DNA of 64,000 nucleotides. It comes from a virus. Taxonomy: Duplodnaviria > Caudoviricetes. The notes below the pieces were generated by a model. That model ran no database searches. It worked only from the letters and a program-made list of their open reading frames with translations, and was not told the DNA's origin. Of this stretch, positions 16,385 through 40,447 are shown piece by piece. Positions within the stretch are counted from its first letter, which is position 1, and each line of letters opens with the position of its first letter. The DNA lies in the IMG/VR virus record IMGVR_UViG_3300029288_000090, positions 1 to 64,000 of that record; one strand, 5' to 3'. The position numbers were made by a program, and so were the translations under genes.

Positions 16385-18181
16385 ATGGCTAATAATCTTA
16401 GTTATGTAGATTATGATTTTGATAATCTAAGAGAGCAGCTCCGTGAACGTGTTCGTGAAGCGGATGCTTGGAAGGATGCATATAGATCTGGAACAGGGGA
16501 GATGCTTATAGATTTTTACGCTTATATAGCAAATTTGGTTCTTTATTATGTTGAGAGAAGAGCGGAAGAAAGTTACATAGAAACAGCCAAGAATAGATCT
16601 TCTGTTGTTAATTTAGTTAAGTTAGTCAACTATTCTCCTAAGAGAAGAACTTCCTCTACTGGTATAGTTACGTTTAGTTTAACTACTGCACATACGTCAG
16701 ATATATTCATTGAGAAGTTTACACGTCTTTCAGAGACATCTGGACTTAAGTTTTTTGTTGGAGAAAAGGAGTTAGATTCGGACGGAAATTATACAGGAAA
16801 TATCGTTGGTGGAGGTGTTTTAAAGGCTGGATCTACTTCTATAACTTTACGGGCTATACAAGGAGATATTGTAGGGAAGACCATTACTTCCAATGGTTCA
16901 GTTGACCAGACTTATTTGATTGAAGAAACAACTGTTGAGGAATATACTCTTTCAGTTGTTGTTGATGGAGTTATATGGGAATCTGTTTCTTCTTTTGCTG
17001 CTTCAGAGCCGGAAGATACACATTACGTCGTTCGTCAAGAGTTAGATGGAACTATTAAGATCCTATTTGGGGATAATCAAAAAGGATATGTTCCTCCTTT
17101 GGGATCTACAATATATATTCAATATGTTTTATCCGATGGAGAAGATGGGAATGTTCTTCAAGGAGATAGGATAACAACTATAGAAGACGACGTATCTGAT
17201 ATAAATGGAAACATCATAACTCTTTCTGTAACTAACTCTAGTGAAATAGATCCAGAAACAGGAGATACAGAAGGAGCTTTTGTTGGAGGGGATGCTGAAG
17301 AAGACATAGAAGAAATCCGTTATGAAGCTCCACGTGTTTTTAGGACTGGAGATAGAGCAGTTACACGAAACGATTTTATAGCTATTTTGGAGAATTATGC
17401 TGGAATAGCTACAGCAAACGCTTGGGGAGAAAACGAAGAGGACCCGCCTAATTATACGATGTTCAATAGAGTTAAACTTTGTTTTATGATGACAGGATGG
17501 GCGTTGCCCACAACAACGTTTAAGTCATTGATTTCTGAATATCTTTATACGAAATCTATGATAACTGTCAAATACGAGTTTATAACTCCAGAAGTTATTT
17601 ATGTTGTCCCTACTCTAGATGTCATTGTAACTAAAAACTACTCTTTATCTCAAGCTACGTTGGATATAGAGAATGCTTTTGAAGCTGAGTTTGTTTTAGG
17701 ATCGACAACAAGGTTGGGAACAGATAAAAATTATTCTAACTTGGTTCGTTTGATTGATGATTTGGATGGCGTTTCCTACCATCATTTAACTCTGGAGATT
17801 TACCAGGAAATAGATACAGATATTAGCTCTTCTAACATTATAGGATCTGCAGGATCGTTCAGTGGAACATTAAACCTGGCACCTATCAAAGAAGGGACTG
17901 TTAAAGTTTATGTTGGGGCAGGGGATACAGCAGTTCAAACGGCAGTAGATAATGAATCTGGAGCTTTTGTAACTGTCGGAGATTACGCTGTTGCAGGAAC
18001 AATCGATTACTCAACTGGAGCTTATTCTGTAGACTTGAGTCCCACTCCTCCAGTAGGAACAGTAGTGGCTATTCGATATCAACAAGCGTATGAGAATAGA
18101 GATAATGATATAGTTGTTGGTTATAATCAGATATGTAAACTTCAGGATGTGGATATAACAGATATTTCAAGTGAGAACTAA
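16385..18181 (+). CDS. Baseplate wedge protein (gp6/baseplate J-like)
   Basis: DFDNLR..L, ESYIETA..RSSV, FGD...G..P, GG...EDIEEIR..AP......RAVT..DF. Confidence 0.9.
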   Translation: MANNLSYVDYDFDNLREQLRERVREADAWKDAYRSGTGEMLIDFYAYIANLVLYYVERRAEESYIETAKNRSSVVNLVKLVNYSPKRRTSSTGIVTFSLTTAHTSDIFIEKFTRLSETSGLKFFVGEKELDSDGNYTGNIVGGGVLKAGSTSITLRAIQGDIVGKTITSNGSVDQTYLIEETTVEEYTLSVVVDGVIWESVSSFAASEPEDTHYVVRQELDGTIKILFGDNQKGYVPPLGSTIYIQYVLSDGEDGNVLQGDRITTIEDDVSDINGNIITLSVTNSSEIDPETGDTEGAFVGGDAEEDIEEIRYEAPRVFRTGDRAVTRNDFIAILENYAGIATANAWGENEEDPPNYTMFNRVKLCFMMTGWALPTTTFKSLISEYLYTKSMITVKYEFITPEVIYVVPTLDVIVTKNYSLSQATLDIENAFEAEFVLGSTTRLGTDKNYSNLVRLIDDLDGVSYHHLTLEIYQEIDTDISSSNIIGSAGSFSGTLNLAPIKEGTVKVYVGAGDTAVQTAVDNESGAFVTVGDYAVAGTIDYSTGAYSVDLSPTPPVGTVVAIRYQQAYENRDNDIVVGYNQICKLQDVDITDISSEN

Positions 18182-22329: not shown

Positions 22330-22971
22330 GTGGTGGATAGAGATACTGTATTTGTTGTTGGTGGAGGCCCTTCCTTATCCTCCTTTAATTTATCTAAACT
22401 TTCTAACTATCATACCATTTGTATTAACCAATCTGTTTTCGACATTCCAAATCCGGATTATCTAATAACTTGTGATTACACTTTTCTTATCAAATTAGGA
22501 AAGGAACGTCTTTCTACTTTATCTTGTACACGTGTTTTTGTTGCTAATTTTATAGGAGAGGCTCTAAAAGAAACGGGAGGAAAGATTATAGATCCACATT
22601 GTAATCTTTTTTATGATTTGTCCTCTTTTGATACGATTATAAAGGCACGAAATAGATCAGGAATAGGAGGAACGTTCAGAGATTTTCGATCAGGGGGCAA
22701 TAGTGGCTACTGTGGGTTTCAATTAGCTGTTCTTCTTGGCTATAAAAAGATAGTTTTTGTTGGAATAGATCTGACAATTGTTGGGCGAAAGACTCATTAT
22801 CATTCAGTATATACAACGGAACTAACTCTGTTTAAAAGAAGGTTGGATACTTACTATGCTGAATTTAAGCATGGGATAGATCAGGTAAAAAGAGACTTCC
22901 CTAATATCAAGATGAGCACAGGAACTCCTGGAAGATTACAAGAGTTACTTCCTCTAGAAAGCCCTATATAA
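22330..22971 (+). CDS. Maf/MptE-like (DUF115-type) glycosyltransferase-fold protein
   Basis: VVGGGPSL, ICIN, NSG...QLAVLLGYKKIVFVGID, THYH. Confidence 0.7.
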   Translation: MVDRDTVFVVGGGPSLSSFNLSKLSNYHTICINQSVFDIPNPDYLITCDYTFLIKLGKERLSTLSCTRVFVANFIGEALKETGGKIIDPHCNLFYDLSSFDTIIKARNRSGIGGTFRDFRSGGNSGYCGFQLAVLLGYKKIVFVGIDLTIVGRKTHYHSVYTTELTLFKRRLDTYYAEFKHGIDQVKRDFPNIKMSTGTPGRLQELLPLESPI

Positions 22972-23029
22972 TACTCGAAAAACACTCTACGTGTCACTGC
23001 AGTGATTTTTAAAGGATAGATTAGAGACT

Positions 23030-23725
23030 TTGATTAAGAAAGATTTAAAACACGTGAAGACGCTTACAGTGATTATTCCAACAAGGGGCCGATTACAGAA
23101 GTTAAAGGAAACGTTAGCTTCAATTCCTACTCTTCCTTACGTTAAAATTTCTGTAATCTGTGATGATGATGCAATAACTAAATATGAATTGGAGAAAATG
23201 AAAAGATCCGATATGTCTGTTCATTGTTCTGGAAAACATAAAGGATCAGTCTGGTGCAGAAATCTTTTAATAGGAAATGAGGAGGATGGAGTTTTGTATG
23301 CAACAGATGATATTATATTTCTTCCTAATTCTATTCAGACAGCTTTTGAAACTTTTAATAGAACTTTTTTAGATGATGATGGAATAGTAGGGTTCCTACA
23401 ACGTCCAGGAACTTTTGATCCTACTGGAGTAGGTTTGGTGGGACAAACGTTTCTAAAACGATTTCCCAATAAAGTTCTGTTTTTTCCTAAATACTACCAT
23501 TTTGCGTCTCAGGAAATAGGAAGATTATGTGAAAGGATTAAAATAGAGGCAAGAAAAGTTGTCTTTGTTCAACATCCTTCCGTGGTTGTTGAACATAAAC
23601 ATCCTGGAATGTTCAAAGAACTTATAGATCAAACACATAGAGATGCAAGGGTATATAAGAATGTAGATCAAAGTTTATCAAAACAAAGAAAACAACAAAA
23701 TCTTGTATGGGGACGAATAGTTTAA
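23030..23725 (+). CDS. GT-A (GT2-like) glycosyltransferase
   Basis: VIIPTRGR...ATDDIIF...VEHKHP. Confidence 0.75.
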   Translation: MIKKDLKHVKTLTVIIPTRGRLQKLKETLASIPTLPYVKISVICDDDAITKYELEKMKRSDMSVHCSGKHKGSVWCRNLLIGNEEDGVLYATDDIIFLPNSIQTAFETFNRTFLDDDGIVGFLQRPGTFDPTGVGLVGQTFLKRFPNKVLFFPKYYHFASQEIGRLCERIKIEARKVVFVQHPSVVVEHKHPGMFKELIDQTHRDARVYKNVDQSLSKQRKQQNLVWGRIV

Positions 23726-23735
23726 GGAGAAACTT

Positions 23736-24719
23736 ATGCACTGTTTGATTACAGGAATTACAGGATTCGTTGGGAGTCATTTGTGTGATTATCTGCTGAC
23801 TCAAGGTGTTCAGATTTATGGATTGTGTAGATGGAGATCTCCTTTGGACAATGTAAGACACTGTCTTGGGAGTTTTACATCTGTTTATGGGGACCTCCTT
23901 GACTTAAGTTCTATGATAGAAGCTATAGATACTATTCGTCCTGATTTTATATTTCATCTGGCAGCTCAATCTTATGTTCCTTACAGTTTTGTAGCTCCAG
24001 GAATAACCGTTCAAACAAACTGTTTGGGAACAACGAATCTATTAGAAGCAATAAGACTTGTCCGTAATAAATGTCTTACATATGATCCTGTTGTTCATAT
24101 TTGCTCCTCTTCGGAAGTATACGGACAAGTTCTTCCAGAGGAAGTTCCAATTGTTGAAACAACACCTTTTCGTCCAGCATCTCCATATGCTGTATCAAAA
24201 GTCTGTGAAGATATGTTGGGTGCACAATATTTTCTCTCTTATGGAATTAAAACAATTCGAACTCGTATGTTTACACATACAGGACCAAGGAGAGGAGATG
24301 TTTTTGTTGAATCAACGTTTGCCAAACAAATTGTTGAAGCAGAATTGAACCTTAGGCGTCCAATTGTTTATGTTGGTAATTTAGATAGTATAAGAACTTT
24401 TGCCGATGTCAGGGATACGGTCAGAGCCTACTGGATGTTAGTCAACACTTGCGTTCCAGGAGAAGTATATAATATAGGAGGAGATTTTACAGAATCTGTT
24501 GGGGATATGTTAAATCGATTGATAAAGTTATCTAATTTGGATGATATAGAAATTCAAGTAGATCAATCCCGTTTACGTCCATCAGATGTAACATTACAAA
24601 TTCCGTCCTCAAATAAGTTCAAAGAAGCTACAGGGTGGAAGCCAGAAATCACTTTTGAACAGACGTTATTAGACTTGCTACACTATTGGAGAGATTGGTA
24701 TGATCGAAATAATGGTTAA
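23736..24719 (+). CDS. gmd: GDP-mannose 4,6-dehydratase
   Basis: ITGITGFVGSHL, HLAAQSYV, SSSEVYG, SPYAVSK, VGNLDSIR, RLRPSDV. Confidence 0.85.
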   Translation: MHCLITGITGFVGSHLCDYLLTQGVQIYGLCRWRSPLDNVRHCLGSFTSVYGDLLDLSSMIEAIDTIRPDFIFHLAAQSYVPYSFVAPGITVQTNCLGTTNLLEAIRLVRNKCLTYDPVVHICSSSEVYGQVLPEEVPIVETTPFRPASPYAVSKVCEDMLGAQYFLSYGIKTIRTRMFTHTGPRRGDVFVESTFAKQIVEAELNLRRPIVYVGNLDSIRTFADVRDTVRAYWMLVNTCVPGEVYNIGGDFTESVGDMLNRLIKLSNLDDIEIQVDQSRLRPSDVTLQIPSSNKFKEATGWKPEITFEQTLLDLLHYWRDWYDRNNG

Positions 24720-25671
24720 ACTGTTTCGGAAAATGTACTTAATCCGTTCTGCTGAAATAGCTATCCGGCAGGAGTATCAGAAAGACGAGATGAAAACTCC
24801 TATGCATATGTCTATGGGAAGTGAGGCTATTTCTGCAGGATTATGTGAGGCACTCGGAAAAAGAGCAGCTGTATTTGGAACTTACCGATCCCATGCTCTA
24901 TACTTGGCAAGAACAGAAGATGTAGATGGATTCTTTGCAGAAATGTATGGGAAAGAAACTGGACCTTCACAAGGAAAAGCAGGGTCTATGCATCTTTGCA
25001 ATCCAAGATTAGGGTTTATGGGAAGTTCAGCAATTGTTGGTGGGATTCTTCCTATAGCTGTTGGATATGCATTTTCTAATCAGTACTTGTCTAGATCTTC
25101 CCCCACAGCAGTTTTATTTGGAGACGGAGCAACAAATGAAGGTACGTTCTGGGAAAGTATTAATCTAGCTTGTGTGAAGAAAGTTCCTATTATATTTGTT
25201 TGTGAAGATAATGGTTTAGCTGTTCATACTAAAAAAGAAACTAGAAACGGATTTACAAATCTTACAGATATTATTACGTTTTTCAAATGTATGTCTTATA
25301 AATATGAGGGAACTAATGTAGAAGTTATATACAACATATTTGAAGAATGTGTTAAGAATCTCCATTTAGGGCCTTGTTTCGTTCATCTTAAGTATTATCG
25401 ATATCTACAACACGTTGGAGTAAACACAGATTTTGATAAGGGATATAGAAACGAATCTGAATTTCACTGCTGGCATAGTATAGATCCGATAAAAATGTGT
25501 GAGAAGCAACTTCTTAACGGTTGTATCTCTACTGAAACAATAGAAGGTATAAAAGAAGAGATAGATCAAAGAGTTAAGGCTGGTATAGAATTTGCTAAGA
25601 ATTCTGATTTTGCTCCAACCCTTTCTATTATAAAAGGTGTATACTATGATGCGTACAATAACGTACTGTGA
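24700..25671 (+). CDS. ThDP-dependent dehydrogenase E1 alpha-like subunit
   Basis: H.S.G.EA, YRSH, GKAGSMH, GDGATNEG...EDN ThDP motif, YRY..HVG. Confidence 0.9.
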   Translation: MIEIMVKLFRKMYLIRSAEIAIRQEYQKDEMKTPMHMSMGSEAISAGLCEALGKRAAVFGTYRSHALYLARTEDVDGFFAEMYGKETGPSQGKAGSMHLCNPRLGFMGSSAIVGGILPIAVGYAFSNQYLSRSSPTAVLFGDGATNEGTFWESINLACVKKVPIIFVCEDNGLAVHTKKETRNGFTNLTDIITFFKCMSYKYEGTNVEVIYNIFEECVKNLHLGPCFVHLKYYRYLQHVGVNTDFDKGYRNESEFHCWHSIDPIKMCEKQLLNGCISTETIEGIKEEIDQRVKAGIEFAKNSDFAPTLSIIKGVYYDAYNNVL

Positions 25672-26692
25672 GGCACTTAAGGAGGCAACTGCTTATATTC
25701 TTGAGAAGCATTCTAACGCTTTTTTGTATGGAATAGGTGTTCCAGATCATACAGAGATTTTTGGTTCCGTTAAAGGAATTTATGAACAGTACGGAGACAG
25801 GAGATGCTTTGATGTTCCTTTGTGTGAGGACACATTGGCAGGATTTGGTTTGGGAGCAGCTCTTGGAGGTCTTACACCTATATTCATAAATATACGTGTG
25901 GATTTTTTACTATTGGCATTAAATCAATTGGCTAATATGATTAGTAGTTATCAATATATGATGAACGGATCTTATCCTCTTCCGTTTGTTATTAGAGCAG
26001 TCATAGGACGTGGATGGGGACAAGGATGTCAGCATAGTAAAAGTTGTCAGTCAATATTTGCTCATATACCTGGACTAAAAGTAGTAATGCCAACTACTCC
26101 TTCTGATGCAAAAGGTTTACTTATTTCTGCATGTGAAGATATGAATCCTGTTGTTTTTATAGAACATCGTTGGTTATATTGGCAAGAAGAAGAAGTTCAA
26201 GAAGGTCCTTTTAGAAGTACTATTGGAGAAGGACGTGTGTTACGAAAAGGGAAGGACGTTACAATTGTTGCAACTTCATGGATGAATGTTGAAACGTTAA
26301 AAGCTGCAGATATCTTACGAAGGAAGGCAGGAGTTGACGTTGAGATAGTTGATCCTAGAACTATTTATCCATTAGATGAGCAAATTATTTACGAATCTGT
26401 TAATAAAACTCATAATTGTATTGTTGCTGATAATGATTGGACGTTCTGTGGATTTTCTTCTGAAGTTGCAGCTTTGGTATCTGATAATTGTTTTCCTAGT
26501 TTAGAAAACCCTGTTAAAAGAGTAGGATTTAAGCATACTCCTTGCCCAACTGCGAGACATTTGGAAAATGAATTTTATCCTAATTCTATTGAAATTATTC
26601 AATGTGTACAGGAACTTTTGGATTTAGGCTCAATAGATTTATTGGATGAAGAATTTTATTCTAATGAAAACCGTTTTAAAGGACCTTTTTAA
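25637..26692 (+). CDS. ThDP-dependent dehydrogenase E1 beta-like subunit
   Basis: DVPLCE, GQGCQHS, PGLKVVMP.TP.DAKGLL, PVVFIEH, GKDVTIVA, D.RTI.PLD. Confidence 0.9.
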   Translation: MYTMMRTITYCEALKEATAYILEKHSNAFLYGIGVPDHTEIFGSVKGIYEQYGDRRCFDVPLCEDTLAGFGLGAALGGLTPIFINIRVDFLLLALNQLANMISSYQYMMNGSYPLPFVIRAVIGRGWGQGCQHSKSCQSIFAHIPGLKVVMPTTPSDAKGLLISACEDMNPVVFIEHRWLYWQEEEVQEGPFRSTIGEGRVLRKGKDVTIVATSWMNVETLKAADILRRKAGVDVEIVDPRTIYPLDEQIIYESVNKTHNCIVADNDWTFCGFSSEVAALVSDNCFPSLENPVKRVGFKHTPCPTARHLENEFYPNSIEIIQCVQELLDLGSIDLLDEEFYSNENRFKGPF

Positions 26693-27066
26693 TGGAAACT
26701 GTAAGAAAAGTATGGGGAGAAGAATATATTATTGTTAATAAAGAGTATTGTGGCAAGATTTTGACACTAAAACAACAGCATAGATGTAGTATACATCACC
26801 ATAAAAATAAGAACGAAACTTTTTTGGTTCTAGAAGGACTTGTTCTTATTGAAAAAAATGGAGAATTGTTTGTCCTTCATCCCTTCCAATCTATAGATAT
26901 TTTGGCAGGGGAAAATCATAGATTTACTGGACTTACAGGAAGCAGAATGATAGAGTTTTCTTCCCATCATGAAGATGACGATAGCTATAGAACATCTTCT
27001 AGTGAGAGAGTTCCTGATTGTGATTTTCATCCTCTTTATAGTAAATATGTGAAAGGTGGAGACTAA
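26692..27066 (+). CDS. Cupin (sugar isomerase-like) protein
   Basis: KVWGEE, CSIHHHKNKNETF, HRF, EFS..H..DDSYR. Confidence 0.75.
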   Translation: METVRKVWGEEYIIVNKEYCGKILTLKQQHRCSIHHHKNKNETFLVLEGLVLIEKNGELFVLHPFQSIDILAGENHRFTGLTGSRMIEFSSHHEDDDSYRTSSSERVPDCDFHPLYSKYVKGGD

Positions 27067-27812
27067 TGTGTTGGCATGATAGAATTGCAGCAGATACAAT
27101 CCTTCAACTGGCTTATGATTTTCATATTGGTACGTTTTTAGAGACAGGAACGTTTAAAGGTGTTAATGCAAAATTCCAATCAAAACGATTTAAACAAGTT
27201 ATTAGTTGTGAGATCAATCCTGAATATTTCAAGATGGCTAAACAAAGAGTCAGTAACTGCCCCAATGTTTATCTTTTTAATATGAGTAGTCCAGAATTTC
27301 TTAAGCTATTTGTTGATCTTTACGAAGCTACTGAAAGAAAAGATTACTTGTTTATTTATCTGGATGCACATTTTTACGATCCAACTTTAGATCCTAAGGA
27401 TCGTTGGGTAGTTTTGAAAGAGTTAGAAGAGTTGGAAGGATTTGAGAATTGTATCATTTGCATTCATGATTTTGATTGTTCGGGGCTTGGGCATTTAACA
27501 TATGATGGAATTCCTTTAGATTTCAATCTAATAGCAGATAGGATTCAGAGAGTTAATCCTGGATTTTATTATTATTGCAATACAAAACAATTTAGTGAAA
27601 TCCATACTGAGCAATCTATTATTGGGATACCAGGTATGAAGAGAGATGAGGATACTTTAAACAATATAGAATTTACACATTCTACAGAAGCAAGAAAATA
27701 TAGGGGGATGATTTACTGTACACCTCAAAAATTGAATTTGTCAAGATATCGTTTAGTCCGTTTTGAACATCCAAGAATTTCCTATCCTCCCGTGGAGTCG
27801 GTATTGTTATGA
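27066..27812 (+). CDS. Class I SAM-dependent methyltransferase-like protein
   Basis: FLETGTFKG, SCEIN, S.EFL, YLDAH, IHD motifs. Confidence 0.7.
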   Translation: MCWHDRIAADTILQLAYDFHIGTFLETGTFKGVNAKFQSKRFKQVISCEINPEYFKMAKQRVSNCPNVYLFNMSSPEFLKLFVDLYEATERKDYLFIYLDAHFYDPTLDPKDRWVVLKELEELEGFENCIICIHDFDCSGLGHLTYDGIPLDFNLIADRIQRVNPGFYYYCNTKQFSEIHTEQSIIGIPGMKRDEDTLNNIEFTHSTEARKYRGMIYCTPQKLNLSRYRLVRFEHPRISYPPVESVLL

Positions 27813-28525
27813 GTATCCCAAAAGTAAGTATTATCGCAACAGCTATCCATACGGAATTCTGGCAAAAGCTCTATGCAGATCTTTCCAGAGATAATCCTAT
27901 TCCCTTTGAGATAGTTTTTGTAGGGAGTAAAAAGCCAGATTTTGCTCTGCCTCCTAATTTCATTTATATCTATTCTGATGCCAAGCCAGTTCAGTGCTTA
28001 GAAACAGCAGCTAGGAATGCCCACGGTGAGTATTGCATGATTACGGCAGATGATGTAGAAGTCCCGCCGAGAATGCTTTATGATATGAACTACTTTTTAA
28101 TTCGAATGTTCAGTGATAAAGCCATTGTCTCGGCGAGATTTGCGGATTCTGCAAATGGGCCTCCTAATGATAAACTTCTTGTTTTGGATACCAGAAATCC
28201 AAGATCTCCCGTCTTGGGAGTTAATACGATGATTAAAAGGAGTGTATGGAAGGAGATAGGAGGATTGGACAAACGTTTCTTTGCCTTCAAAGCAGATTTA
28301 GATCTTCAAATGAGAATATATGCTTCTGGAGGATATTTATTTTTAGTTCCAGATAGTATAGCCAGGGAGAAGCCACGTCCAGGACCAAGATTGGTAGACA
28401 CATTTTCAGCACATGATAGTAAGATTTTGTATGATCTTTGGGTACTTCCTAATGGAGAAACCAGTAAAACTCGAATGGGAGAACTTCATCCTTTTGAAGA
28501 TAATGAGATTCCAATAGTGAGATAA
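27809..28525 (+). CDS. GT-A glycosyltransferase, paralog 1 of 7
   Basis: VSII..AI, FEIVFVG, KP.QC.E.A.R...GEY, ADD, GGLDKRF...D.DL..R. Confidence 0.75.
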   Translation: MSIPKVSIIATAIHTEFWQKLYADLSRDNPIPFEIVFVGSKKPDFALPPNFIYIYSDAKPVQCLETAARNAHGEYCMITADDVEVPPRMLYDMNYFLIRMFSDKAIVSARFADSANGPPNDKLLVLDTRNPRSPVLGVNTMIKRSVWKEIGGLDKRFFAFKADLDLQMRIYASGGYLFLVPDSIAREKPRPGPRLVDTFSAHDSKILYDLWVLPNGETSKTRMGELHPFEDNEIPIVR

Positions 28526-28527
28526 TT

Positions 28528-29250
28528 ATGACAACTCCTTATATTAGTATTATTAGTTCAGCTATTCATACGCAATTTTGGATGGAGATTTATAATCAGT
28601 TTAATTGTTCACTAAATAAAGTTCCGTTTGAACTTGTGTTTGTCGGAAATAAAACTCCTAATTTTCAACTCCCTCCTAATTTTATTTTTATTTATAGTGA
28701 TGCAAAACCAGCCAAATGTTTTGAGATTGCTGCTAGAAATGCTCATGGAGAATATATGATGTTCTTTCAGGACGATCTTATAATTCCTGATAGAGCCTTG
28801 AATTGGATTTGTGCATATATTCCAAGACTTCCAGAACAAAAGAAGTTAGTTCTTACACCACGATTTAGTGATACTCCTAATGGAGAACCAAGAGATAATT
28901 TGTTAAGTTTCTATCCTCCTTATATAGGATCTCCAGTTATAGGAGTGGGAACTATTTTTCATAGACAACTATGGTATGAATTAGGGGGGATAGATAGACG
29001 ATTTAATCTTCTTTTTTCTGACTATGATATGATGTTAAGAATTTATGAGCAGGGAGGAATTCCTTTTATAGTTCCAGAATGTGTGTTGAAAGAACGTTCT
29101 CATGAAGGAAGGAATAGATTGATTAACAACTATAAACCTGATAGAGAACTTTTATATTCATTATGGCTTCTTCCTGATAAAACAGTAAGTAAGAAAAGAC
29201 TGCAATCGTTGCAACCTTATACAAAAGAAGAGATTGTTATAGTGAGATAA
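28528..29250 (+). CDS. GT-A glycosyltransferase, paralog 2 of 7
   Basis: Same motif set, QDD, GGIDRRF; shares LPPNFI.IYSDAKP with paralog 1. Confidence 0.75.
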   Translation: MTTPYISIISSAIHTQFWMEIYNQFNCSLNKVPFELVFVGNKTPNFQLPPNFIFIYSDAKPAKCFEIAARNAHGEYMMFFQDDLIIPDRALNWICAYIPRLPEQKKLVLTPRFSDTPNGEPRDNLLSFYPPYIGSPVIGVGTIFHRQLWYELGGIDRRFNLLFSDYDMMLRIYEQGGIPFIVPECVLKERSHEGRNRLINNYKPDRELLYSLWLLPDKTVSKKRLQSLQPYTKEEIVIVR

Positions 29251-29254
29251 GATT

Positions 29255-29428
29255 ATGGAACTTCTACTACTTATTCTTATTATTGCATTTTGCTTTGGAG
29301 GCAAGGGAGAACAAAGAGCTAGAACGTATATCAAATCTCCACCAAAAACACCACGTCCGGAAAATGTAAACCCGATACCTCATTCTTTTAAAAAGGACAG
29401 CACAAATGGAACTGAATCTAAAAGGTAA
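29255..29428 (+). CDS. Small membrane-anchored Pro-rich peptide, 57 aa (not in ORF track)
   Basis: MELLLLILIIAFCFGG...SPPKTPRPE...; fills the gap and overlaps the next gene. Confidence 0.45.
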   Translation: MELLLLILIIAFCFGGKGEQRARTYIKSPPKTPRPENVNPIPHSFKKDSTNGTESKR

Positions 29429-30179
29429 AACTGCTTTAATTACAGGAGGTACTCACGGGATAGGGAAAGCTATAACCATGAGTTTGGCTTTGGAAGGATG
29501 TAATGTTATATTTGTATCCAGTAATAAAGATAGAGTTGATTTCATGATAGGAGAGATGGAACCTCTTCGTCAGAAGTTGGAGTTTAACTATGCTGGTTTT
29601 TGTCATGATTTAACTCAAGAAAATGAAATTAGAAACTGTTTGAAAAATATATATACTCTTATTCGTGATATCGGAACTATTGATATTTTGATTAATAATG
29701 TTGGAGGAGGAGGAAGACGGGGAGATAGAATGTGGGAAATAACCCAGCAAGATATATGGGAGGAGGTAATGGCGAAAAATCTTTTCGTTTCATCAATGTT
29801 TACAATGCATCTTATTCCTGATATGATTAAGAAGAAGTGGGGAAGAGTAGTTACTATATCTTCAATTTATGGAAAAGAAAGTGGAGGACGTCCATGGTTT
29901 ACAGCAGCAAAATCAGCACAAATAGCCATGATGAAAGAATTATCACGGAACAGGAGGTATGTATCCTCTGGAATTACTTTTAATACGGTTTGTCCAGGAT
30001 ATATAGATATTCGTGATAATCAGAAGATAGAATATTTGGAAGCTATAGATATTCCTGCAACACGCTATGGGGATCCTTTTGAAGTAGCCAACGTAGTTAG
30101 TTTCTTATGTTCAGATAAAGCTTCTTATGTTAATGGAGCTTGTATTACTGTAGATGGGGGTTTAAGTCATAGTTTTTAG
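29406..30179 (+). CDS. Classical-type SDR oxidoreductase (FabG-like fold)
   Basis: TGGTHGIG, DILINNVG, WGRVVTISS, N.VCPG, VDGG; catalytic motif reads FTAAK. Confidence 0.85.
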   Translation: MELNLKGKTALITGGTHGIGKAITMSLALEGCNVIFVSSNKDRVDFMIGEMEPLRQKLEFNYAGFCHDLTQENEIRNCLKNIYTLIRDIGTIDILINNVGGGGRRGDRMWEITQQDIWEEVMAKNLFVSSMFTMHLIPDMIKKKWGRVVTISSIYGKESGGRPWFTAAKSAQIAMMKELSRNRRYVSSGITFNTVCPGYIDIRDNQKIEYLEAIDIPATRYGDPFEVANVVSFLCSDKASYVNGACITVDGGLSHSF

Positions 30180-30194
30180 AATAAGGAGTCAAAA

Positions 30195-31184
30195 ATGGTT
30201 GTTCAAAGACCTTCAACGAAAAATGTTAAATCATCAAAACTATTTACTGATAAAATTCAACTATTTCATGTAGGAGGCGTAGGCGGAATAGGCCCTGCTT
30301 CCGTTTTATATGGATTTGGTGTCAATGGAATTCATCAAACAGTATTTGAAGCAGATAATGAAAACTTCGCTCCTTCTTCTGGAATAGAGACCACAATTGT
30401 TCCCAAATGTATTTGGAGCGAAGAAGCTGAGATTGACTTTCATTCAATGTGGAAACCTCTTGCCAGTAGTGTCTACCGTGGAAGTACAAAAAATGCCAAA
30501 TTGCAACGTCAGGATGTTAATCATAGACTCGTTATCGAAGAGATGTGCCACGTTGTAAAAACTCATAAGGTTAAAGCAACAACATTGAATAAGTTGATTG
30601 AGAATAAGGAGATCCCAATTCCTGATTATCTCAGTATGGATGTTCAAGGAGCAGAGCTGGCTATTATGCAAGGATCTACTACAGCTTTTGAATCTGATCT
30701 TTTAGGAGTTTGTACCGAAGTAGAATTTCAAGAACTATATGAAGGACAACCTTTATTTGCTCATCAAGATGCCTTTTTAAGACAGTATCAATTTACATTG
30801 TGGAATTTCTTCAGCGTTGAGTATTGGTATCCTGGACTAATTATGGGACAAGGAGCTTTTACTGTTGCAGAAGCTGTTTATTTCCGTGACGTGAATTGGT
30901 TTGTTGAAAGATATGAAAATGATAAGCAGTCCCTTCTGGAACGTCTTCTTAAGTTGGCTTTGGTTGCCAAGCAATCGGGTTTTGTTTCTTATGGCTTGTA
31001 TATTCTAGACTATATCTCCATTCATCTTACAGATCTTTACTATCAATTTCAGAAGGAACATGTAAACGCTTGGTTTACCAAAGACTTAATTGCATATCAT
31101 ACAGCTATGTGTACGCAAAGAAAACAGTATGAAGCCACTCCATCATGGGCACAATCAGCAGGAATTGACTTAAGTAAAATGTAG
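30195..31184 (+). CDS. FkbM-family methyltransferase
   Basis: HVGG.G, FEAD, DYLSMDVQGAEL..MQG, TEVEF.ELYEGQPLF. Confidence 0.85.
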   Translation: MVVQRPSTKNVKSSKLFTDKIQLFHVGGVGGIGPASVLYGFGVNGIHQTVFEADNENFAPSSGIETTIVPKCIWSEEAEIDFHSMWKPLASSVYRGSTKNAKLQRQDVNHRLVIEEMCHVVKTHKVKATTLNKLIENKEIPIPDYLSMDVQGAELAIMQGSTTAFESDLLGVCTEVEFQELYEGQPLFAHQDAFLRQYQFTLWNFFSVEYWYPGLIMGQGAFTVAEAVYFRDVNWFVERYENDKQSLLERLLKLALVAKQSGFVSYGLYILDYISIHLTDLYYQFQKEHVNAWFTKDLIAYHTAMCTQRKQYEATPSWAQSAGIDLSKM

Positions 31185-31194
31185 GAGTCTTAGT

Positions 31195-32208
31195 ATGCTA
31201 TCGCAAGAAATCAAAGATTATCTAAAAGGAAAGAACTGTCTTGTTACAGGAGGAACTGGACTCATAGGACGACAAGTTGTTGATCTATTAGTGGATTGTG
31301 AGGCAGCAGTAACTTCTGTTTCTCTTGATTCCCTTACTCTTAATAAGCATGCTAATTATGGCGTTGTTGATCTTTCTGACTATAAATTCATAAGATCACT
31401 TATTAAAAGTATGGATCTTGTTCTTCATGTAGCTGGAATAAAGGGATCAATTGAAGTAACAAAAACAAAACCTGCTAGCTTCTTCGTTCCTCTTCTTCAG
31501 ATGAATACAAATGTTTTAGAAGCTTGTAGGTCATGTGGAATAAAACGAATGGTCTATGTCAGTTCTGTCGGGGCATATCAATCTGCAGAGATATTTAAAG
31601 AAAAGGATTGTGACTTCTCTAAACCTCCTATGGACGAATTTCCGGGTTGGGCAAAAAGGATGGCTGAACTGCAAATTCAAGCATATAAGAAGCAGTATGG
31701 AATAGTAGATTATGCTATTGTCCGTCCTGCTAATATATATGGACCTGGAGATAATTTTGATTCTAAAAATGCTATGGTTATTCCTTCTCTTATGGCAAGA
31801 TTAGTGGATGGAGAAAATCCATTAGTTGTATGGGGAGACGGTTCAGCTGTACGAGATTTTGCTTATTCTAAAGATATTGCAGAAGGAATTATTCGGGCTC
31901 TTTACTATGGAACTGATGGAGAAGTAGTCAATCTTGGATCTGGAAAAGGAGTTACTATTCGTGAGTTAGTAGAAACATTAGCAGAGGTTTGTAAGGATGA
32001 TCTTTCTTTTGACATCAAATTTGACGAAGCAAAACCTTCTGGATTTCCTAAACGTGTTATGGATATAACCAGAGCACAGCAGTGGTTTGGTTGGGAACCT
32101 ACAACTTCTCTTAAAGATGGATTGAAAGAAACCTGGGATTGGTTTTTAGATCATGGAGAAGAATCACTTAAAAGAACGGATTATTTCAATGAGCAAGCCA
32201 CTAGTTAG
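31195..32208 (+). CDS. NAD-dependent nucleotide-sugar epimerase/reductase (GDP-fucose synthase-like)
   Basis: VTGGTGLIG, RPANIYGPGDNF, VIPSL, VWGDGSAVRDF, NLGSG; catalytic motif reads PGWAK. Confidence 0.85.
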   Translation: MLSQEIKDYLKGKNCLVTGGTGLIGRQVVDLLVDCEAAVTSVSLDSLTLNKHANYGVVDLSDYKFIRSLIKSMDLVLHVAGIKGSIEVTKTKPASFFVPLLQMNTNVLEACRSCGIKRMVYVSSVGAYQSAEIFKEKDCDFSKPPMDEFPGWAKRMAELQIQAYKKQYGIVDYAIVRPANIYGPGDNFDSKNAMVIPSLMARLVDGENPLVVWGDGSAVRDFAYSKDIAEGIIRALYYGTDGEVVNLGSGKGVTIRELVETLAEVCKDDLSFDIKFDEAKPSGFPKRVMDITRAQQWFGWEPTTSLKDGLKETWDWFLDHGEESLKRTDYFNEQATS

Positions 32209-32986
32209 TATTTATGCTGCGGCTATTCGACCTTCATTATGGATGAGATTATACGAATCTCTTCTCCAAAATGAAGATATAAGATTTGAAGTTGTTTTTG
32301 TCGGACATATTCCTCCTAACTATGCTCTTCCAAAAGATTTTAAATATATTTATAGTCCAGTGAAACCTGTTCAGTGTGCAGAAATAGCTTTTCGAAATAC
32401 TCAAGGACATTTTTGTATACAAGCGTTTGACGATCTTGTTTTTGGACCACATGCTTTGGATTGTTTATTTAGACAATATAAAGAAGTTGGTCATAAATGG
32501 TATCTTCCCTGTTGTATTCAGTATGCAAAGAATGTTCTTATAGAAAAAGAGAGATGCAGATTCTTTGGATGCATTTTAGACTCTCCTATTCTTCCTATCT
32601 GTGGATTTTATAGGAGGGATGCTTTGGAGGAAGTAGGGAGTAGAGATAGTTGTTTTATTCGTACATATGCTGATTTAGATATTGCTATGAGATACTATGA
32701 AAAAGGAGGATGGGCAGAGTTTTGTGATCATGCAATAGTCAATGAGCTTCCTCCTGAAAATACTACAGACTATTCAGGGTTGAATCATAAAGGATCACAA
32801 ATAGATTGGCCAAAACTTCTTTCTCTTTGGAGTATTTCTAGAGAAGACTATAAAATACATTCTAGACCTTTTTATTGTGTAATGGGAGATACGTTCGTAG
32901 TAAAAAATAGAATACGCCCTGTTGAACCTTTTGTTGAAGATGGCTTACTAGATCATTCACAAGGAGCTAATGATGACTGGATCTAA
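32189..32986 (+). CDS. GT-A glycosyltransferase, paralog 3 of 7
   Basis: KPLVSIY..AIRP, FEVVFVGH, SPVKPVQCAEI, FDD; start at overlapping ATG 32189. Confidence 0.75.
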   Translation: MSKPLVSIYAAAIRPSLWMRLYESLLQNEDIRFEVVFVGHIPPNYALPKDFKYIYSPVKPVQCAEIAFRNTQGHFCIQAFDDLVFGPHALDCLFRQYKEVGHKWYLPCCIQYAKNVLIEKERCRFFGCILDSPILPICGFYRRDALEEVGSRDSCFIRTYADLDIAMRYYEKGGWAEFCDHAIVNELPPENTTDYSGLNHKGSQIDWPKLLSLWSISREDYKIHSRPFYCVMGDTFVVKNRIRPVEPFVEDGLLDHSQGANDDWI

Positions 32987-33731
32987 ACCTTTAGTCAGTA
33001 TTTATATGCCAGCAATTCGACCTCACTGGTGGAGAAGAATTTATGATTCTCTTCAAAGCAATAAGAAAGTAGATTTTGAACTGATCTTTGTAGGACATGT
33101 TCATCCTGATTTTCCTATGCCTAGCAATATGATTCATATTTACTCTCCTGTCAAACCTGCACAGTGTGCGGAAATAGGATTCCGAAATTGTCATGGACAG
33201 TTTTGCATGAATATAGCAGATGACATCGTTTTTGGAGAGAGATGTCTGGATATTCTCTACGATAAGTTTATATCATTAGGAACGGATTTGGTTGTTGTTT
33301 CTTGCATTCATCATGCTGGAGGAAAGCCACTTCCCAAGGAGATGAACACGTTTTTTCCTAATAATCCTTCTACTCCTATTAATCCTATAGCTGGATTGTA
33401 CAAGACAGAAGTTTATAGAAGTTTGGGGTCAAGGGATAGAAATTTTGTATGTACATATTCTGATTCTGACATGGCTTTCAGATTGTATGAACGTGGAGGA
33501 AAAAGTGTAATATGTGAGGAGGCCCATGTTCACGAAGTTAACCCTCCTGGAACACGTCATGATTCAGGATTGAATTGGATAGGAAAAGATATAGATTGGC
33601 CTCTTATGTTAGATTTATGGTTCAAAAACAGAAGTACGGTTTATTTAGGAAAACGATCTCGTTCCATCGACCCATTCGTAGAAGAAGGATTACTTACAGC
33701 ATCTCAAGGTCCGAAAGGAAAATGGCAGTGA
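32970..33731 (+). CDS. GT-A glycosyltransferase, paralog 4 of 7
   Basis: Same motifs, ADD, ends SQGPKGKWQ. Confidence 0.75.
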   Translation: MMTGSKPLVSIYMPAIRPHWWRRIYDSLQSNKKVDFELIFVGHVHPDFPMPSNMIHIYSPVKPAQCAEIGFRNCHGQFCMNIADDIVFGERCLDILYDKFISLGTDLVVVSCIHHAGGKPLPKEMNTFFPNNPSTPINPIAGLYKTEVYRSLGSRDRNFVCTYSDSDMAFRLYERGGKSVICEEAHVHEVNPPGTRHDSGLNWIGKDIDWPLMLDLWFKNRSTVYLGKRSRSIDPFVEEGLLTASQGPKGKWQ

Positions 33732-34531
33732 AACCAGTAATTAGTTTATATGTCCCTAGTATAAGACCAGAAAATTGGCCTAAACAACTTGCTTCTTTAA
33801 AGCAAAGTACTGTTCCTTTTGAAGTTATTTATGTAGGGCATGTTCCTCCTATTGAAGGAAAGAACTATCCTCCTGAACTTCAGTATATTCATAGTGCTGT
33901 CAAACCAGCTCAATGTGCCGAGATAGGGTTTAGAGCATGTGAGGGAGAATTTTGTATATTTGCTCAGGATGATGTCATATTTGGACCTAATACATTGGAT
34001 ATTCTCCATGCTGCTTTCTTAAAGCAAGGAACAGACTTGTCTGTTGTATCGTGTATGCCTTACTTAAATGGAAGTCCTCTGGAAACAGCTCGATACCGTT
34101 TTTGGGATGGAGACCGTGGGAGTCCTATGACTCCAATAGGAGGATTATACAAGAGGAGTGTACTGGTAGAATTAGGCGGGATAGATAAGAATTTTGTGTG
34201 CACTGCTTGGGATATTGATCTATGTATGAGATTATTTGAACGTGGAGGATTTGGAGTTTTTTGTGAGGGAACTATTGCGAATGAAGTAGTTCCTCCTAAC
34301 TCCACGAGACTGTGCTCCTATGGAGCAAGAATTGATCGTCCACTTCTTCACACTCTGTGGACTATGACGCACGGAGAATATGCTCATCAAAAGAACATCC
34401 CTATTCATTATTTGAATCCTGGTCGAAAACCCAATGGAGTTATTTGTAAGAATCGCCGACGTCCCTTTGAACCTTTTTCTCCTATTGATCTTTTAGTCAA
34501 GTCTCAAGGTCCTACAGGAAGATGGCAATGA
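33722..34531 (+). CDS. GT-A glycosyltransferase, paralog 5 of 7
   Basis: Homology begins at MAVKPVISLY (33722); QDD; GGIDKNF; ends SQGPTGRWQ. Confidence 0.75.
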   Translation: MAVKPVISLYVPSIRPENWPKQLASLKQSTVPFEVIYVGHVPPIEGKNYPPELQYIHSAVKPAQCAEIGFRACEGEFCIFAQDDVIFGPNTLDILHAAFLKQGTDLSVVSCMPYLNGSPLETARYRFWDGDRGSPMTPIGGLYKRSVLVELGGIDKNFVCTAWDIDLCMRLFERGGFGVFCEGTIANEVVPPNSTRLCSYGARIDRPLLHTLWTMTHGEYAHQKNIPIHYLNPGRKPNGVICKNRRRPFEPFSPIDLLVKSQGPTGRWQ

Positions 34532-35397
34532 AAACACACTCTCGATTCAGGACAAGATGTCGATCTATGCCTACAACTTTTGAAAAGCCTATTATTAGCA
34601 TATATGTTCCTTCCATTCGCCCTTCTTTATGGAAGAGATTATACGATTCGTTACTTCTTAACAGAACACCATTTGAAGTTATTTTTGTAGGCCCTATAAC
34701 TGGAAGGTTTCAACTTCCTAAGAATGTCAGATATATCTGTACATCAGTAAAACCTTCTCAATGTGCAGAAATAGGATTAAGATCCTGTATAGGTCAATAT
34801 TGTATATTTGCTCAAGATGATATTGTTTTCAGTAAAAAAGCTTTAGATATTCTCTATGAAACAGCCAAAGAAAAAGGAGATCAGGTTGTTGTTTCTTGTT
34901 ATCCTTGTGTCAACTATAGAAGATTGCAAGATTCTTATTACAGATTCTTTCCTGTAGATGATAAAGATACAATTCATAAAAAAGATAGTCCTATAGTTCC
35001 TTTGTGTGGCATATATAAAAAATCAGTTTTGATGGAGTTAGGAGGAATAGATAGAAATTTTATTTGCAGTTGTTGGGACATTGATTTAGCTATGAGATTT
35101 TATGAAAAAGGAGGGCAGGCTATATTTCATCCAGATGCTTTGGCTAATGAGATAGTTGTTCCAAAAGAAAAAAGATTAGCTGCAGAAGGAAAGAAAGACA
35201 GAACTTTTCTGGAATCTTTATGGACGATGACACATGAAGAATTCAAACATCCTACTAATGTTGGAATGCCTGTGTTTCATATAGATAACAATATACCTAT
35301 TGGAGTCATAGTCAAGACTAGAAGAAAACCCTTTACTCCTTTTACAGAAGAGAATATTATGACTATTTCTCAAGATCCCAAAGGAAGATGGCAATGA
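34522..35397 (+). CDS. GT-A glycosyltransferase, paralog 6 of 7
   Basis: KPIISIYVPSIRP, QDD, GGIDRNF; ends SQDPKGRWQ. Confidence 0.75.
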   Translation: MAMKTHSRFRTRCRSMPTTFEKPIISIYVPSIRPSLWKRLYDSLLLNRTPFEVIFVGPITGRFQLPKNVRYICTSVKPSQCAEIGLRSCIGQYCIFAQDDIVFSKKALDILYETAKEKGDQVVVSCYPCVNYRRLQDSYYRFFPVDDKDTIHKKDSPIVPLCGIYKKSVLMELGGIDRNFICSCWDIDLAMRFYEKGGQAIFHPDALANEIVVPKEKRLAAEGKKDRTFLESLWTMTHEEFKHPTNVGMPVFHIDNNIPIGVIVKTRRKPFTPFTEENIMTISQDPKGRWQ

Positions 35398-36200
35398 AGC
35401 CAGTGATTAGCATTTATGTTCCTGGAGTAAGGCCTCATTTTTGGTTACAGATGTATGACTCCTTATGTGCTAATGATATTTCTTTTGAACTTATCTTTGT
35501 AGGACATATAGATCCTCCTTATATTCTTCCTAATAATGTTCTTCATCTTCATACACCAGTCAAGCCAGTGCAATGTGCTGAGATAGGGTTTAGATTATGC
35601 CAGGGTGAATACTGTATGTATCTTGCAGATGACATTTTGTTGAATCCACATGCGTTAGATATTCTTTATGAGAAAACAAAGGAGAAAGACGGATCTGCAA
35701 TTTTTTCTTGTACTCCTTATATTAATGGGAGGAGGATTAAAACAGCTTCTTATAGATTCTTTCCTGCTGATGATATTAGTCAGTACAGAGAAGATAGTCC
35801 TATAACTCCTTTAGGAGCTTTATATAAAAAGAAATGGATCCGTGAGCTAGGAGGAATAGATAGAAATTTCGTTTGCACAGCTTGGGATATTGATTTGGCT
35901 ATGAGATTTTATGAACAAGGAGGAATCTGTGAATTTTTAGAAGAGGCGGAAGCTAATGAGATTGTTCCCTCACAATCTGGAAGATTAGCAACGGAGGGAG
36001 AAGGAGATAGACTTACGTTAGAACGATTTTGGACTGTGAGAAGGACCAATATCACTCCGGAAGAAGAAAAAACTACTGTTATGTATGTTGATGAATCTTT
36101 ACCCTTATGTATCCTGAAAAAGAGAACTTGTCCAGTAGAATCCTTTGTAGATGATAATATAGGAACACTTTCCCAGGGTCCCAAGGGAAAATGGGTATAA
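35388..36200 (+). CDS. GT-A glycosyltransferase, paralog 7 of 7
   Basis: KPVISIYVPGVRP, ADD, GGIDRNF; ends SQGPKGKWV. Confidence 0.75.
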   Translation: MAMKPVISIYVPGVRPHFWLQMYDSLCANDISFELIFVGHIDPPYILPNNVLHLHTPVKPVQCAEIGFRLCQGEYCMYLADDILLNPHALDILYEKTKEKDGSAIFSCTPYINGRRIKTASYRFFPADDISQYREDSPITPLGALYKKKWIRELGGIDRNFVCTAWDIDLAMRFYEQGGICEFLEEAEANEIVPSQSGRLATEGEGDRLTLERFWTVRRTNITPEEEKTTVMYVDESLPLCILKKRTCPVESFVDDNIGTLSQGPKGKWV

Positions 36201-36283
36201 ATGACACACTGGGTGTGCTTGTATGTGTTTTGTTTTTAATACGTGTATAAATATTCCCTTAAAACACGTATACGTGAATCCAA

Positions 36284-36361
36284 TATAACTACTTATAATA
36301 CAATAGGTTATATAAAAGATTGAAAAAGGTATTATAACTGCTTATAATACAATAGGTTATA
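36284..36361. repeat. Pair of 29-bp imperfect palindromes (operator-like), locus A
   Basis: TATAACTACTTATAATACAATAGGTTATA (36284-36312) and TATAACTGCTTATAATACAATAGGTTATA (36333-36361). Confidence 0.85.
36320..36348 (+). promoter_or_regulatory. Sigma70-type promoter
   Basis: TTGAAA-17 nt-TATAAT, 16 nt upstream of the radical SAM ATG. Confidence 0.7.
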
Positions 36362-36364
36362 CAT

Positions 36365-37756: not shown

Positions 37757-38298
37757 AACGGTCCAGATTAGTTTCTGTTGAGAAAACTAAACTCCCTAAC
37801 GTTCTTTTATTCAAAAGAGAAGTGTTTGAAGATCATCGTGGTACCTATGAGGAACTATGGAATGAAGAAGTGTATCAAGCAGAAATAGAACGTTTGATCG
37901 GTTTTAAGATGCGATTTATGGAAGACGATATAGCTATTTCCAACAAACATGTCTTAAGGGGACTTCATGGAGATGATAGGACTTGGAAGTTAGTTACTTG
38001 TTTAAAGGGACGGTTTTATATTGTTGTAGCGTGTAACGATTCTAATTCTTCTTATTACACAGATTGGCAGTCTTTTGTTCTTTCGGATAGTAATAAGCAT
38101 CAATTGTTAGTACCTCCTATGCACGGGCATGGATATGTAGTTATGTCAGACGATGCGATATTTCATTACAAACAGTCACATTCTTATCGTGGGATGGTTC
38201 AGCAGTTTACAATTAAGTATGATGATGAACGTTTTGGATTTTGGTGGCCAGTCCAGAATCCTATTTTGTCCCTTAGGGACACGAGAGGCAAAGTATGA
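37744..38298 (+). CDS. rmlC: NDP-4-keto-6-deoxyhexose 3,5-epimerase (RmlC family)
   Basis: FEDHRG, S.KHVLRGLH, KLVTC..G, LLVPP..GHG, YK, WP...PILS.RD. Confidence 0.85.
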   Translation: METVKRSRLVSVEKTKLPNVLLFKREVFEDHRGTYEELWNEEVYQAEIERLIGFKMRFMEDDIAISNKHVLRGLHGDDRTWKLVTCLKGRFYIVVACNDSNSSYYTDWQSFVLSDSNKHQLLVPPMHGHGYVVMSDDAIFHYKQSHSYRGMVQQFTIKYDDERFGFWWPVQNPILSLRDTRGKV

Positions 38299-40445: not shown

Positions 40446-40447
40446 TT

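Follow-up and report, generated by a model that had tools for sequence, protein, structure and literature searches.

A pyruvate dehydrogenase E1-like pair in a phage glycan cluster is a probable carboligase for a GDP-linked sugar

We analysed positions 23736-30179 of a 64-kb stretch of phage DNA (the window), taken from the virus record IMGVR_UViG_3300029288_000090. This region encodes a sugar dehydratase-like protein, two subunits similar to the α and β chains of the E1 component of pyruvate dehydrogenase (PDH) and, further downstream, a short-chain dehydrogenase/reductase (SDR). Judging from the sequence, the E1 pair is probably a stand-alone carboligase dependent on thiamine diphosphate (ThDP). 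It would add a pyruvate-derived two-carbon (C2) unit to a 4-keto-6-deoxy sugar linked to guanosine diphosphate (GDP). A first-pass annotation of the window had proposed such an enzyme, without E2 and E3 partners and acting on a 4-keto-6-deoxy nucleoside diphosphate (NDP) sugar, and all the in-silico tests named with that proposal supported it. The reading builds on observed gene content, translational coupling, missing E2 and E3, conserved synteny, and phylogenetic placement.

The virus record is complete (126,556 bp, with direct terminal repeats), and the window is its first 64 kb. The virus is a myovirus, distantly related to the T4-like phages, with a gp6/Baseplate_J protein at 16385-18181. 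A co-oriented glycan cluster of 19.5 kb (22330-41887) starts right behind the baseplate and tail genes. Three of its genes are the main subject here:

23736-24719, plus strand: putative NDP-sugar 4,6-dehydratase of the GDP-sugar (DmhA/Rmd/Gmd) group (PF16363, 264 bits)
24700-25671, plus strand: ThDP-dependent E1α of the alphaKADH2 type (PF00676, 151 bits)
25637-26692, plus strand: E1β (PF02779 and PF02780), probable start at ATG 25646 or 25649

The E1α start codon (ATG 24700) has a GGAG 8 nt upstream and lies inside the dehydratase gene, with a 20-nt overlap. The first 11 residues can be aligned to homologues. For E1β, the two probable starts stand behind an AAGGTG and give an overlap with E1α of 23-26 nt, or 35 nt if the GTG at 25637 is the start. 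The dehydratase, E1α, and E1β genes thus form one overlapping coupled unit, as the first-pass annotation had described. Its gene coordinates agree with ours, and the SDR that it placed downstream of the pair is found at 29406-30179.

That annotation had seen no E2 or E3 gene in the window. The absence extends to the complete phage genome, where searches for PF00198 (E2), PF00364 (lipoyl), and PF02852 (E3) gave no match. As a control, each of these domain searches was run on 14 genomes and was positive in 10 to 14 of them. Likewise, ten probes taken from annotated operons (seven for E2 and three for E3) detected no E2 or E3 near E1 in 103 related loci. These loci comprise 80 cellular ones from one-genome-per-species data and 23 viral contigs; individual loci are cited below by L numbers.

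The best NCBIfam names for the pair are PDH E1 α and β, and the closest solved structures of both subunits are PDH E1s. With the E1s of PDH, acetoin dehydrogenase, and branched-chain 2-oxo acid dehydrogenase (BCKDH), the phage proteins share the fold, the Pfam domains, the residues that bind and activate ThDP, and subunits of the heterotetramer type. In E1α, the GDG...N motif for ThDP/Mg is intact, and the histidine equivalent to human His263 is kept. In E1β, the ThDP-activating glutamate (PLCE) is intact, and the histidine aligned to Bst β-His128 is kept. However, the curated PDH scores are missed. E1α reaches 238 bits with TIGR03182 (cut-off 394), and E1β reaches 273 bits with PRK09212 (cut-off 321). 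Together with the missing E2/E3 and a position outside the E2-linked references, this sets the pair apart from housekeeping PDH E1.

The pair has instead the features of the alphaKADH2 type. Its E1α (PF00676) and E1β (PF02779 and PF02780) are separate chains with intact ThDP/Mg motif and glutamate, and no cognate E2 or E3 occurs in the cluster or the genome. It is located in an NDP-sugar cluster, overlapping the gene of a putative keto-sugar-forming 4,6-dehydratase. It also groups with actinomycete deoxysugar-cluster pairs, not with E2-linked E1s. The single-chain TPP_enzyme N/M/C architecture of YerE-like enzymes was not found; only E1_dh and transketolase-type domains are present.

Phylogeny was among the tests named in advance, and it places the pair apart from housekeeping PDH, acetoin dehydrogenase, and BCKDH, with Streptomyces deoxysugar-cluster pairs. 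As E2-linked references we took, from annotated plasmid operons, PDH (Limosilactobacillus, Streptomyces, and Leisingera), Burkholderia acetoin dehydrogenase, Rhizobium BCKDH, and two sugar-regulated complexes. In a first E1α tree, all of them fell outside a clade of 107 E2-less sequences, which had a support of 99 in the Shimodaira-Hasegawa-like approximate likelihood ratio test (SH-aLRT). The phage was placed in a clade of 92 dehydratase-linked sequences (99 SH-aLRT), beside L002, L087, and L088.

To add actinomycete sugar enzymes, the clade profile was run against 401 Streptomyces genomes. Its four top-scoring hits (240-250 bits) were E2-less pairs, and for two of them a 4,6-dehydratase-like gene lies no more than 3 kb away; the next-best matches sampled were mostly E2-linked. 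The sole annotated locus of the four (L235) is a classical deoxysugar cluster. Upstream of its pair it encodes a 2,3-dehydratase, a GFO-type reductase, an NDP-sugar transferase, an EryCIII-like glycosyltransferase, a 4,6-dehydratase, and a 3,5-epimerase. In the expanded trees, with the subunits treed separately, a shared clade was recovered at 98 (E1α) and 99 (E1β) SH-aLRT. It contains the dehydratase-linked clade with the phage, the four Streptomyces pairs, the pair of plasmid pDMC1, and a viral-only clade. All 13-14 E2-linked PDH, acetoin, and BCKDH references lie outside it in both trees.

Several other E2-less pairs were observed in this survey. The viral-only clade (100 SH-aLRT) comprises 14 IMG/VR contigs, L096-L109, some of them large (182 kb and 436 kb). 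The one annotated locus among them (L098:8953-17669) encodes a Zn-dependent alcohol dehydrogenase, a PfkB-like kinase fragment, FkbM, an epimerase, a cupin, a 4,6-dehydratase-like protein, and a GT2 glycosyltransferase. This sugar cluster differs from that of the phage, and hits resembling dehydratases or cupins were also seen in several other contigs of the clade. Solidesulfovibrio magneticus RS-1, which can be cultivated, carries its E2-less pair of the same superclade on plasmid pDMC1 (L116, positions 27415-29438 of the record). The glycan cluster there includes GT2 glycosyltransferases, a radical S-adenosylmethionine (SAM) enzyme, a kinase, GDP-fucose synthase, an aminotransferase, and a nucleotidyltransferase. 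Four further Streptomyces genomes (G020, G214, G342, and G253; loci L249, L254, L253, and L252) have E2-less pairs outside the sugar superclade, with no sugar genes within 9 kb.

The neighbourhood of the pair is conserved. A protein search gave thousands of E1α homologues at ~50% identity. The fetched loci came from Dehalococcoidia (Chloroflexota), Patescibacteria, Omnitrophota, Planctomycetota, Thermodesulfobacteriota, Nitrospirota, Thermoplasmatota, and others. We compared the phage cluster proteins with these loci, using as denominators 75 loci upstream, 73 for E1β, 62 downstream, and 54 long loci. A dehydratase homologue (at least 45% identity) stands on the same strand within 2 kb upstream of E1α in 54 of 75 cellular loci. 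It is directly adjacent in 43, and its identity is 54-67% where it lies directly upstream. E1β follows E1α in all cases (73/73). These two frequencies argue that the arrangement is not due to chance. The dehydratase-E1α-E1β unit spans more than ten phyla, mostly uncultured, and about ten other viral contigs.

Downstream of the pair, an RmlC-like epimerase is present in 42 of 62 cellular loci, an Fcl-like SDR in 33/62, and a B12 radical SAM enzyme in 12/62. The SDR lacking its catalytic tyrosine, described below, occurs in 19/62 and an aldo-keto reductase in 17/62, both together in 1/62. Such a near-exclusive distribution would be expected if the two enzymes were alternatives for a single step. 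A second ThDP pair, split and transketolase-like, was also observed behind E1β in 27 of the 62 cellular loci with enough downstream sequence (for example L003:11988-15904, and also L021, L024, L044, and others). It is usually accompanied by the aldo-keto reductase instead of the SDR, so the two variants may differ in more than the reductase. An STT3/AglB-type oligosaccharyltransferase was found a few kb upstream in a Dehalococcoidia metagenome-assembled genome (L003:2070-4472) and in a metagenome contig (L005:4686-7055). A general link of the cassette to N-glycosylation was rejected, with STT3/AglB in just 2 of 54 long loci.

Two sister phages, L002 (123.7 kb) and L087 (124 kb), carry the whole cluster in the same order, with 45-81% protein identity. 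The values are 56-57% for E1α, 66-67% for E1β, and 60-81% for the two glycosyltransferases at 27809-29250. Synteny maintained at such low identity implies long purifying selection in a phage lineage. The cassette core is also retained in L088 to L092, among them contigs 219 and 351 kb long. Searched against phage records, the region had no nucleotide match, and tblastn of E1α gave only matches of at most 30% identity, mostly in unannotated or bacterial-looking records. So, published phage genomes gave no context.

The dehydratase had first been read as a canonical gmd product, and this was not sustained. It scores 171 bits with TIGR01472 (gmd), where the cut-off is 415. Among its solved relatives, the Campylobacter GDP-heptose 4,6-dehydratase (7US5, 273 bits) comes first, nearer than E. 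coli Gmd (158 bits), and each of the best three is an enzyme of GDP-sugars. Its SSSEVYG and PASPYAVSK motifs, with the Ser/Thr-Glu and YxxxK residues of a GDP-sugar-group 4,6-dehydratase, were conserved in at least 90% of the 72 homologues compared. For the RmlC-like protein, the best solved relatives include the GDP-4-keto-heptose 3- and 3,5-epimerases of Campylobacter jejuni. GDP is therefore well supported as the predicted nucleotide carrier.

The identity of the sugar is less definite. A 6-deoxy-4-keto-heptose has been described for C. jejuni (PMC10680097). Of 54 long cellular loci, 33 encode an HddA-like kinase and 10 a GmhA-like isomerase. Since such heptose genes often accompany the cellular cassette, the product could be a branched nonose and not an octose. 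In other words, the acceptor may be 6-deoxy-4-keto-heptose (nonose product) rather than 4-keto-6-deoxymannose (octose product). The GDP-linked octose of the first-pass annotation thus stands in its GDP part; the octose has a nonose as alternative.

The rest of the cluster was annotated as follows:

26692-27066, plus strand: small cupin (PF01050 and Cupin_2, weak; phrog_7851 cupin)
27066-27812, plus strand: methyltransferase-like protein (Methyltransf_3 only a weak hint, E 0.023)
27809-28525 and 28528-29250, plus strand: two GT-A-like glycosyltransferase paralogues (PF13632, weak)
29255-29428, plus strand: open reading frame of 57 aa with a hydrophobic N-terminus, in the gap before the SDR
29406-30179, plus strand: classical SDR with a FabG-like fold (PF13561, 131 bits; PF00106)
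30195-31184, plus strand: FkbM-family methyltransferase, a cassette member beyond 23736-30179
31195-32208, plus strand: Fcl-like extended SDR, a cassette member beyond 23736-30179
36365-37756, plus strand: B12-binding radical SAM enzyme, cassette member
37744-38298, plus strand: RmlC-like 3,5-epimerase, cassette member
38295-39284, plus strand: second Fcl-like SDR, cassette member

Overlaps of 1-4 nt through the cupin, the methyltransferase-like gene, and the two glycosyltransferases continue the chain to 29250. Five further glycosyltransferase paralogues lie downstream of 23736-30179, and the phage has at least nine in total. MptE/Maf-like domains were observed at both ends of the glycan cluster (22330-22971 and 40448-41887). 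The product of the unannotated 57-aa reading frame (29255-29428) is strongly hydrophobic at its N-terminus (MELLLLILIIAFCF...), and its tail is basic and rich in proline. It spans the operon's only sizeable gap and overlaps the SDR start by 23 nt. That this 155-nt gap is a copy of a dispersed module at 36208-36361 was rejected on comparison, and no terminator-like site was found in it.

For the cupin, there was no informative solved relative. A cupin homologue directly behind E1β was found only in the viral contig L088, and a weak one upstream in L008. The cupin is accessory and outside the conserved core cassette. Homologues of the methyltransferase-like protein (46-67% identity) stand directly behind E1β in L002, L087, L090, L019, L022, and L026; in other cassettes, another methyltransferase-like gene occupies this position. 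The B12 radical SAM enzyme, the RmlC-like epimerase, and the second Fcl-like SDR keep their synteny in cellular cassettes. The first Fcl-like SDR has 57-63% identity to its homologues there.

The three SDRs show unusual active sites. In the SDR at 29406-30179, aligned to FabG (2P68), F164 occupies the position of the catalytic tyrosine (RPWFTAAK). The Asn-Ser-Tyr-Lys tetrad of a classical SDR ketoreductase is thus altered from tyrosine to phenylalanine, and the RPWFxxAK motif is present in 24 of 27 cassette homologues. The Fcl-like SDR at 31195-32208 has PGWAK in place of YxxxK, and at least 90% of 41 homologues lack the canonical tyrosine. Likewise, the second Fcl-like SDR (38295-39284) has VGWMK; among its 36 homologues, WMK is conserved in at least 90%, with no tyrosine at the canonical position. 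The tyrosine loss in all three SDRs is a family-wide conserved feature and not phage decay. Speculatively, these sites are perhaps remodelled for a substrate whose sole carbonyl is exocyclic.

The proposed pathway starts with the host. No sugar nucleotidyltransferase, GHMP kinase, or SIS isomerase was found in the complete phage genome, which by its gene content makes no NDP-sugar itself; the NDP-sugar must therefore be host-derived. From here on, the donor, the acceptor, the branch position, and every catalytic step are inferred. The upstream dehydratase would convert a host-supplied GDP-sugar to its 4-keto-6-deoxy form. E1α/E1β would decarboxylate pyruvate to give hydroxyethylidene-ThDP and transfer the C2 unit to the ring ketone of the sugar instead of to a lipoyl-E2. 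This would leave a tertiary alcohol and a C-acetyl branch (+44 Da). The branched sugar is probably tailored by the methyltransferase-like protein, the atypical SDR, FkbM, and the two Fcl-like SDRs, and probably also by the B12 radical SAM enzyme and the RmlC-like epimerase. At least nine glycosyltransferases of the phage would attach it to an acceptor.

Some results weigh against this pathway. The two retained histidines, which serve reductive acylation in true E1s, may leave lipoyl chemistry with a host E2 possible as far as sequence goes. The SDR proposed as branch reductase has no catalytic tyrosine, and its role is uncertain. As a YerF-like reductase, the role given to it in the first-pass annotation, it has the expected downstream position without the expected catalytic residue. 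The sister relationship of the Streptomyces pairs and the phage clade has a moderate support of 82 SH-aLRT for E1α, and the E1β tree does not resolve it. The four Streptomyces pairs, chosen by context, stand in for AviB1, Pau11, and KbDH in the trees, and the E2-linked reference set is small and drawn from plasmids and Streptomyces. Finally, the second-best solved relative of the dehydratase is the reductase Rmd (2PK3). An attempt to separate both activities by motifs failed, given that Rmd also has Ser-Glu and YxxxK. The gene at 23736-24719 is read as a dehydratase because it is the only candidate in the cluster for ketone formation.

Three other explanations were considered. In the first, the pair carries out ThDP chemistry on the same sugar pathway with a different reaction: another 2-oxo acid as donor, branching at C3, or acyloin cleavage. 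The donor might be hydroxypyruvate, 2-oxobutyrate, or a longer acid (as for ErwE), and a C3 branch might follow keto-isomerisation. In known antibiotics, alphaKADH2 branching occurs at C3 or C4, and the donors of YerE-like enzymes vary (PMC12247030). However, the sole alphaKADH2 sugar-type enzyme assayed in vitro took only pyruvate as donor (PMC12247030), and domain searches did not detect an FdtA-type 3,4-ketoisomerase domain. The cupin behind E1β in this phage could point to another reaction, but it does not belong to the conserved cassette. The split transketolase-like pair of many cellular cassettes makes more than one C-C step possible, and the nearest E2-linked outgroup in the E1β tree is the acetoin-cleaving Ao:DCPIP oxidoreductase. 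On balance, we judge a different reaction unlikely.

In the second, the cassette is inactive cargo captured from a host, with an E1 pair that no longer functions in the phage. The missing genes for any NDP-sugar and the three downstream SDRs with non-canonical active sites would agree with this. Nevertheless, the reading frames and catalytic motifs are intact, the full cluster is syntenic in L002 and L087 at the E1 identities given above, and the odd SDR motifs are equally family-wide in cells. Loss of function seems very improbable.

The third, in which the phage E1 joins a host E2/E3 as an auxiliary gene of central metabolism and drives more pyruvate to acetyl-CoA during infection, has on its side the NCBIfam names, the retained histidines of true E1s, and the PDH structures as nearest relatives, but is hardly credible in view of the scores below the PDH equivalog cut-offs, the translational coupling to a sugar dehydratase within a 19.5-kb glycan cluster, a unit kept in the sugar cassettes of lineages such as Patescibacteria, and a clade in which no relative is E2-linked and whose 98-99 SH-aLRT support excludes the E2-linked references.

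A stand-alone E1-like carboligase has precedents. PDH-E1-like pairs have been assigned the C2 branching from pyruvate in avilamycin, paulomycin, everninomicin, and kosinostatin (PMC4802897, PMC4753412, PMC10338323). More precisely, this step is assigned to AviB1/AviB2 of avilamycin eurekanate and to Plm8/Plm9 (= Pau11/Pau12) of paulomycose (PMC4802897, PMC4753412); for AviB1/B2, PMC4802897 cites gene-knockout evidence. A 2025 review describes the alphaKADH2 grouping, with about 120 gene clusters; it reports that feeding and knockout experiments support the aldgamycin pair and that KbDH-α/β couples pyruvate and a ketone in vitro (PMC12247030). AviB1/AviB2, Plm8/Plm9, EvdU5/EvdS3, and KbDH (kibdelomycin) are two-subunit and E2/E3-less, like the phage pair. 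The AviB/Pau/KbDH type is also encoded beside the dehydratase that makes its acceptor, and the phage pair resembles it in its place next to a putative dehydratase and in a ketoreductase candidate downstream. For paulomycose, the enzyme proven to reduce the acetyl branch (Pau7) belongs to the aldo-keto reductases (PMC4753412).

There are also differences from these systems. The phage pair forms a clade separate from the Streptomyces pairs, with 31-33% (α) and 41-43% (β) identity. Its flanking enzymes are of the GDP-sugar type (like DmhA, Fcl, and the C. jejuni epimerase), whereas those of actinomycetes use deoxythymidine or uridine diphosphate sugars. Moreover, pairs of the phage type occur in the phage glycan cluster and in surface cassettes of uncultured phyla, not in clusters for secondary metabolites. 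In the literature, we found no description of this GDP-linked cassette or of a phage example.

YerE/YerF of yersiniose A, and other YerE-like enzymes of lipopolysaccharide sugars, follow the same proposed logic, with pyruvate supplying a C2 unit for the C4 ketone of a surface-glycan NDP-4-keto-6-deoxy sugar and subsequent reduction of the acetyl branch (PMC12247030, PMC4802897). Cell-surface branched sugars have been assigned to such YerE-like enzymes, which are unrelated (PMC12247030). YerE belongs to the decarboxylase (acetolactate-synthase-like) superfamily and is a single-chain flavoprotein acting on a cytidine diphosphate sugar, while the phage enzyme is an E1α/E1β heteromer. The likeness is a functional analogy, not family membership. 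The C. jejuni GDP-heptose pathway offers the best solved relatives of the phage dehydratase and RmlC-like protein. However, it has no ThDP step, and the phage lacks heptose-activation genes. Unlike that pathway, the two Fcl-like proteins of the phage have no canonical YxxxK tyrosine.

Taken at its widest, the proposal is that a virus carries a working pathway that forms C-C bonds. An alphaKADH2 carboligase would act on a GDP-4-keto-6-deoxy heptose or hexose, together with tyrosine-lacking SDRs, O-methyltransferases, and a B12 radical SAM C-methyltransferase. The outcome would be an undescribed branched, methylated nonose or octose, attached by the glycosyltransferases of the phage to the virion or host surface; the same sugar would be common on the surfaces of many uncultured bacterial and archaeal phyla. 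We advance this wider picture tentatively, as somewhat less than an even chance.

The first-pass annotation had foreseen that automated pipelines would mislabel the pair as central metabolism, and current labels confirm it. Homologues of E1α carry the JGI name 'TPP-dependent pyruvate/acetoin dehydrogenase alpha subunit', and PHROGs places the SDR (29406-30179) among auxiliary metabolic genes. In viromes, the genes of this cassette are easily scored as 'pyruvate dehydrogenase' auxiliary genes and thereby misassigned to central carbon metabolism. For biocatalysis, the clade would be a source of new ketone-accepting ThDP carboligases, and the pDMC1 pair of S. magneticus RS-1 is a possible model for experiments. 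Judging by this phage and its relatives in cells, a large and so far unstudied branch of the E1-like class occurs in surface-glycan cassettes of many uncultured phyla and in several phage lineages, apparently acting on GDP-sugars. E1-like sugar branching has so far been documented only in actinomycete antibiotic pathways. Here it would be a known reaction in a new setting, with a sugar product not described before.

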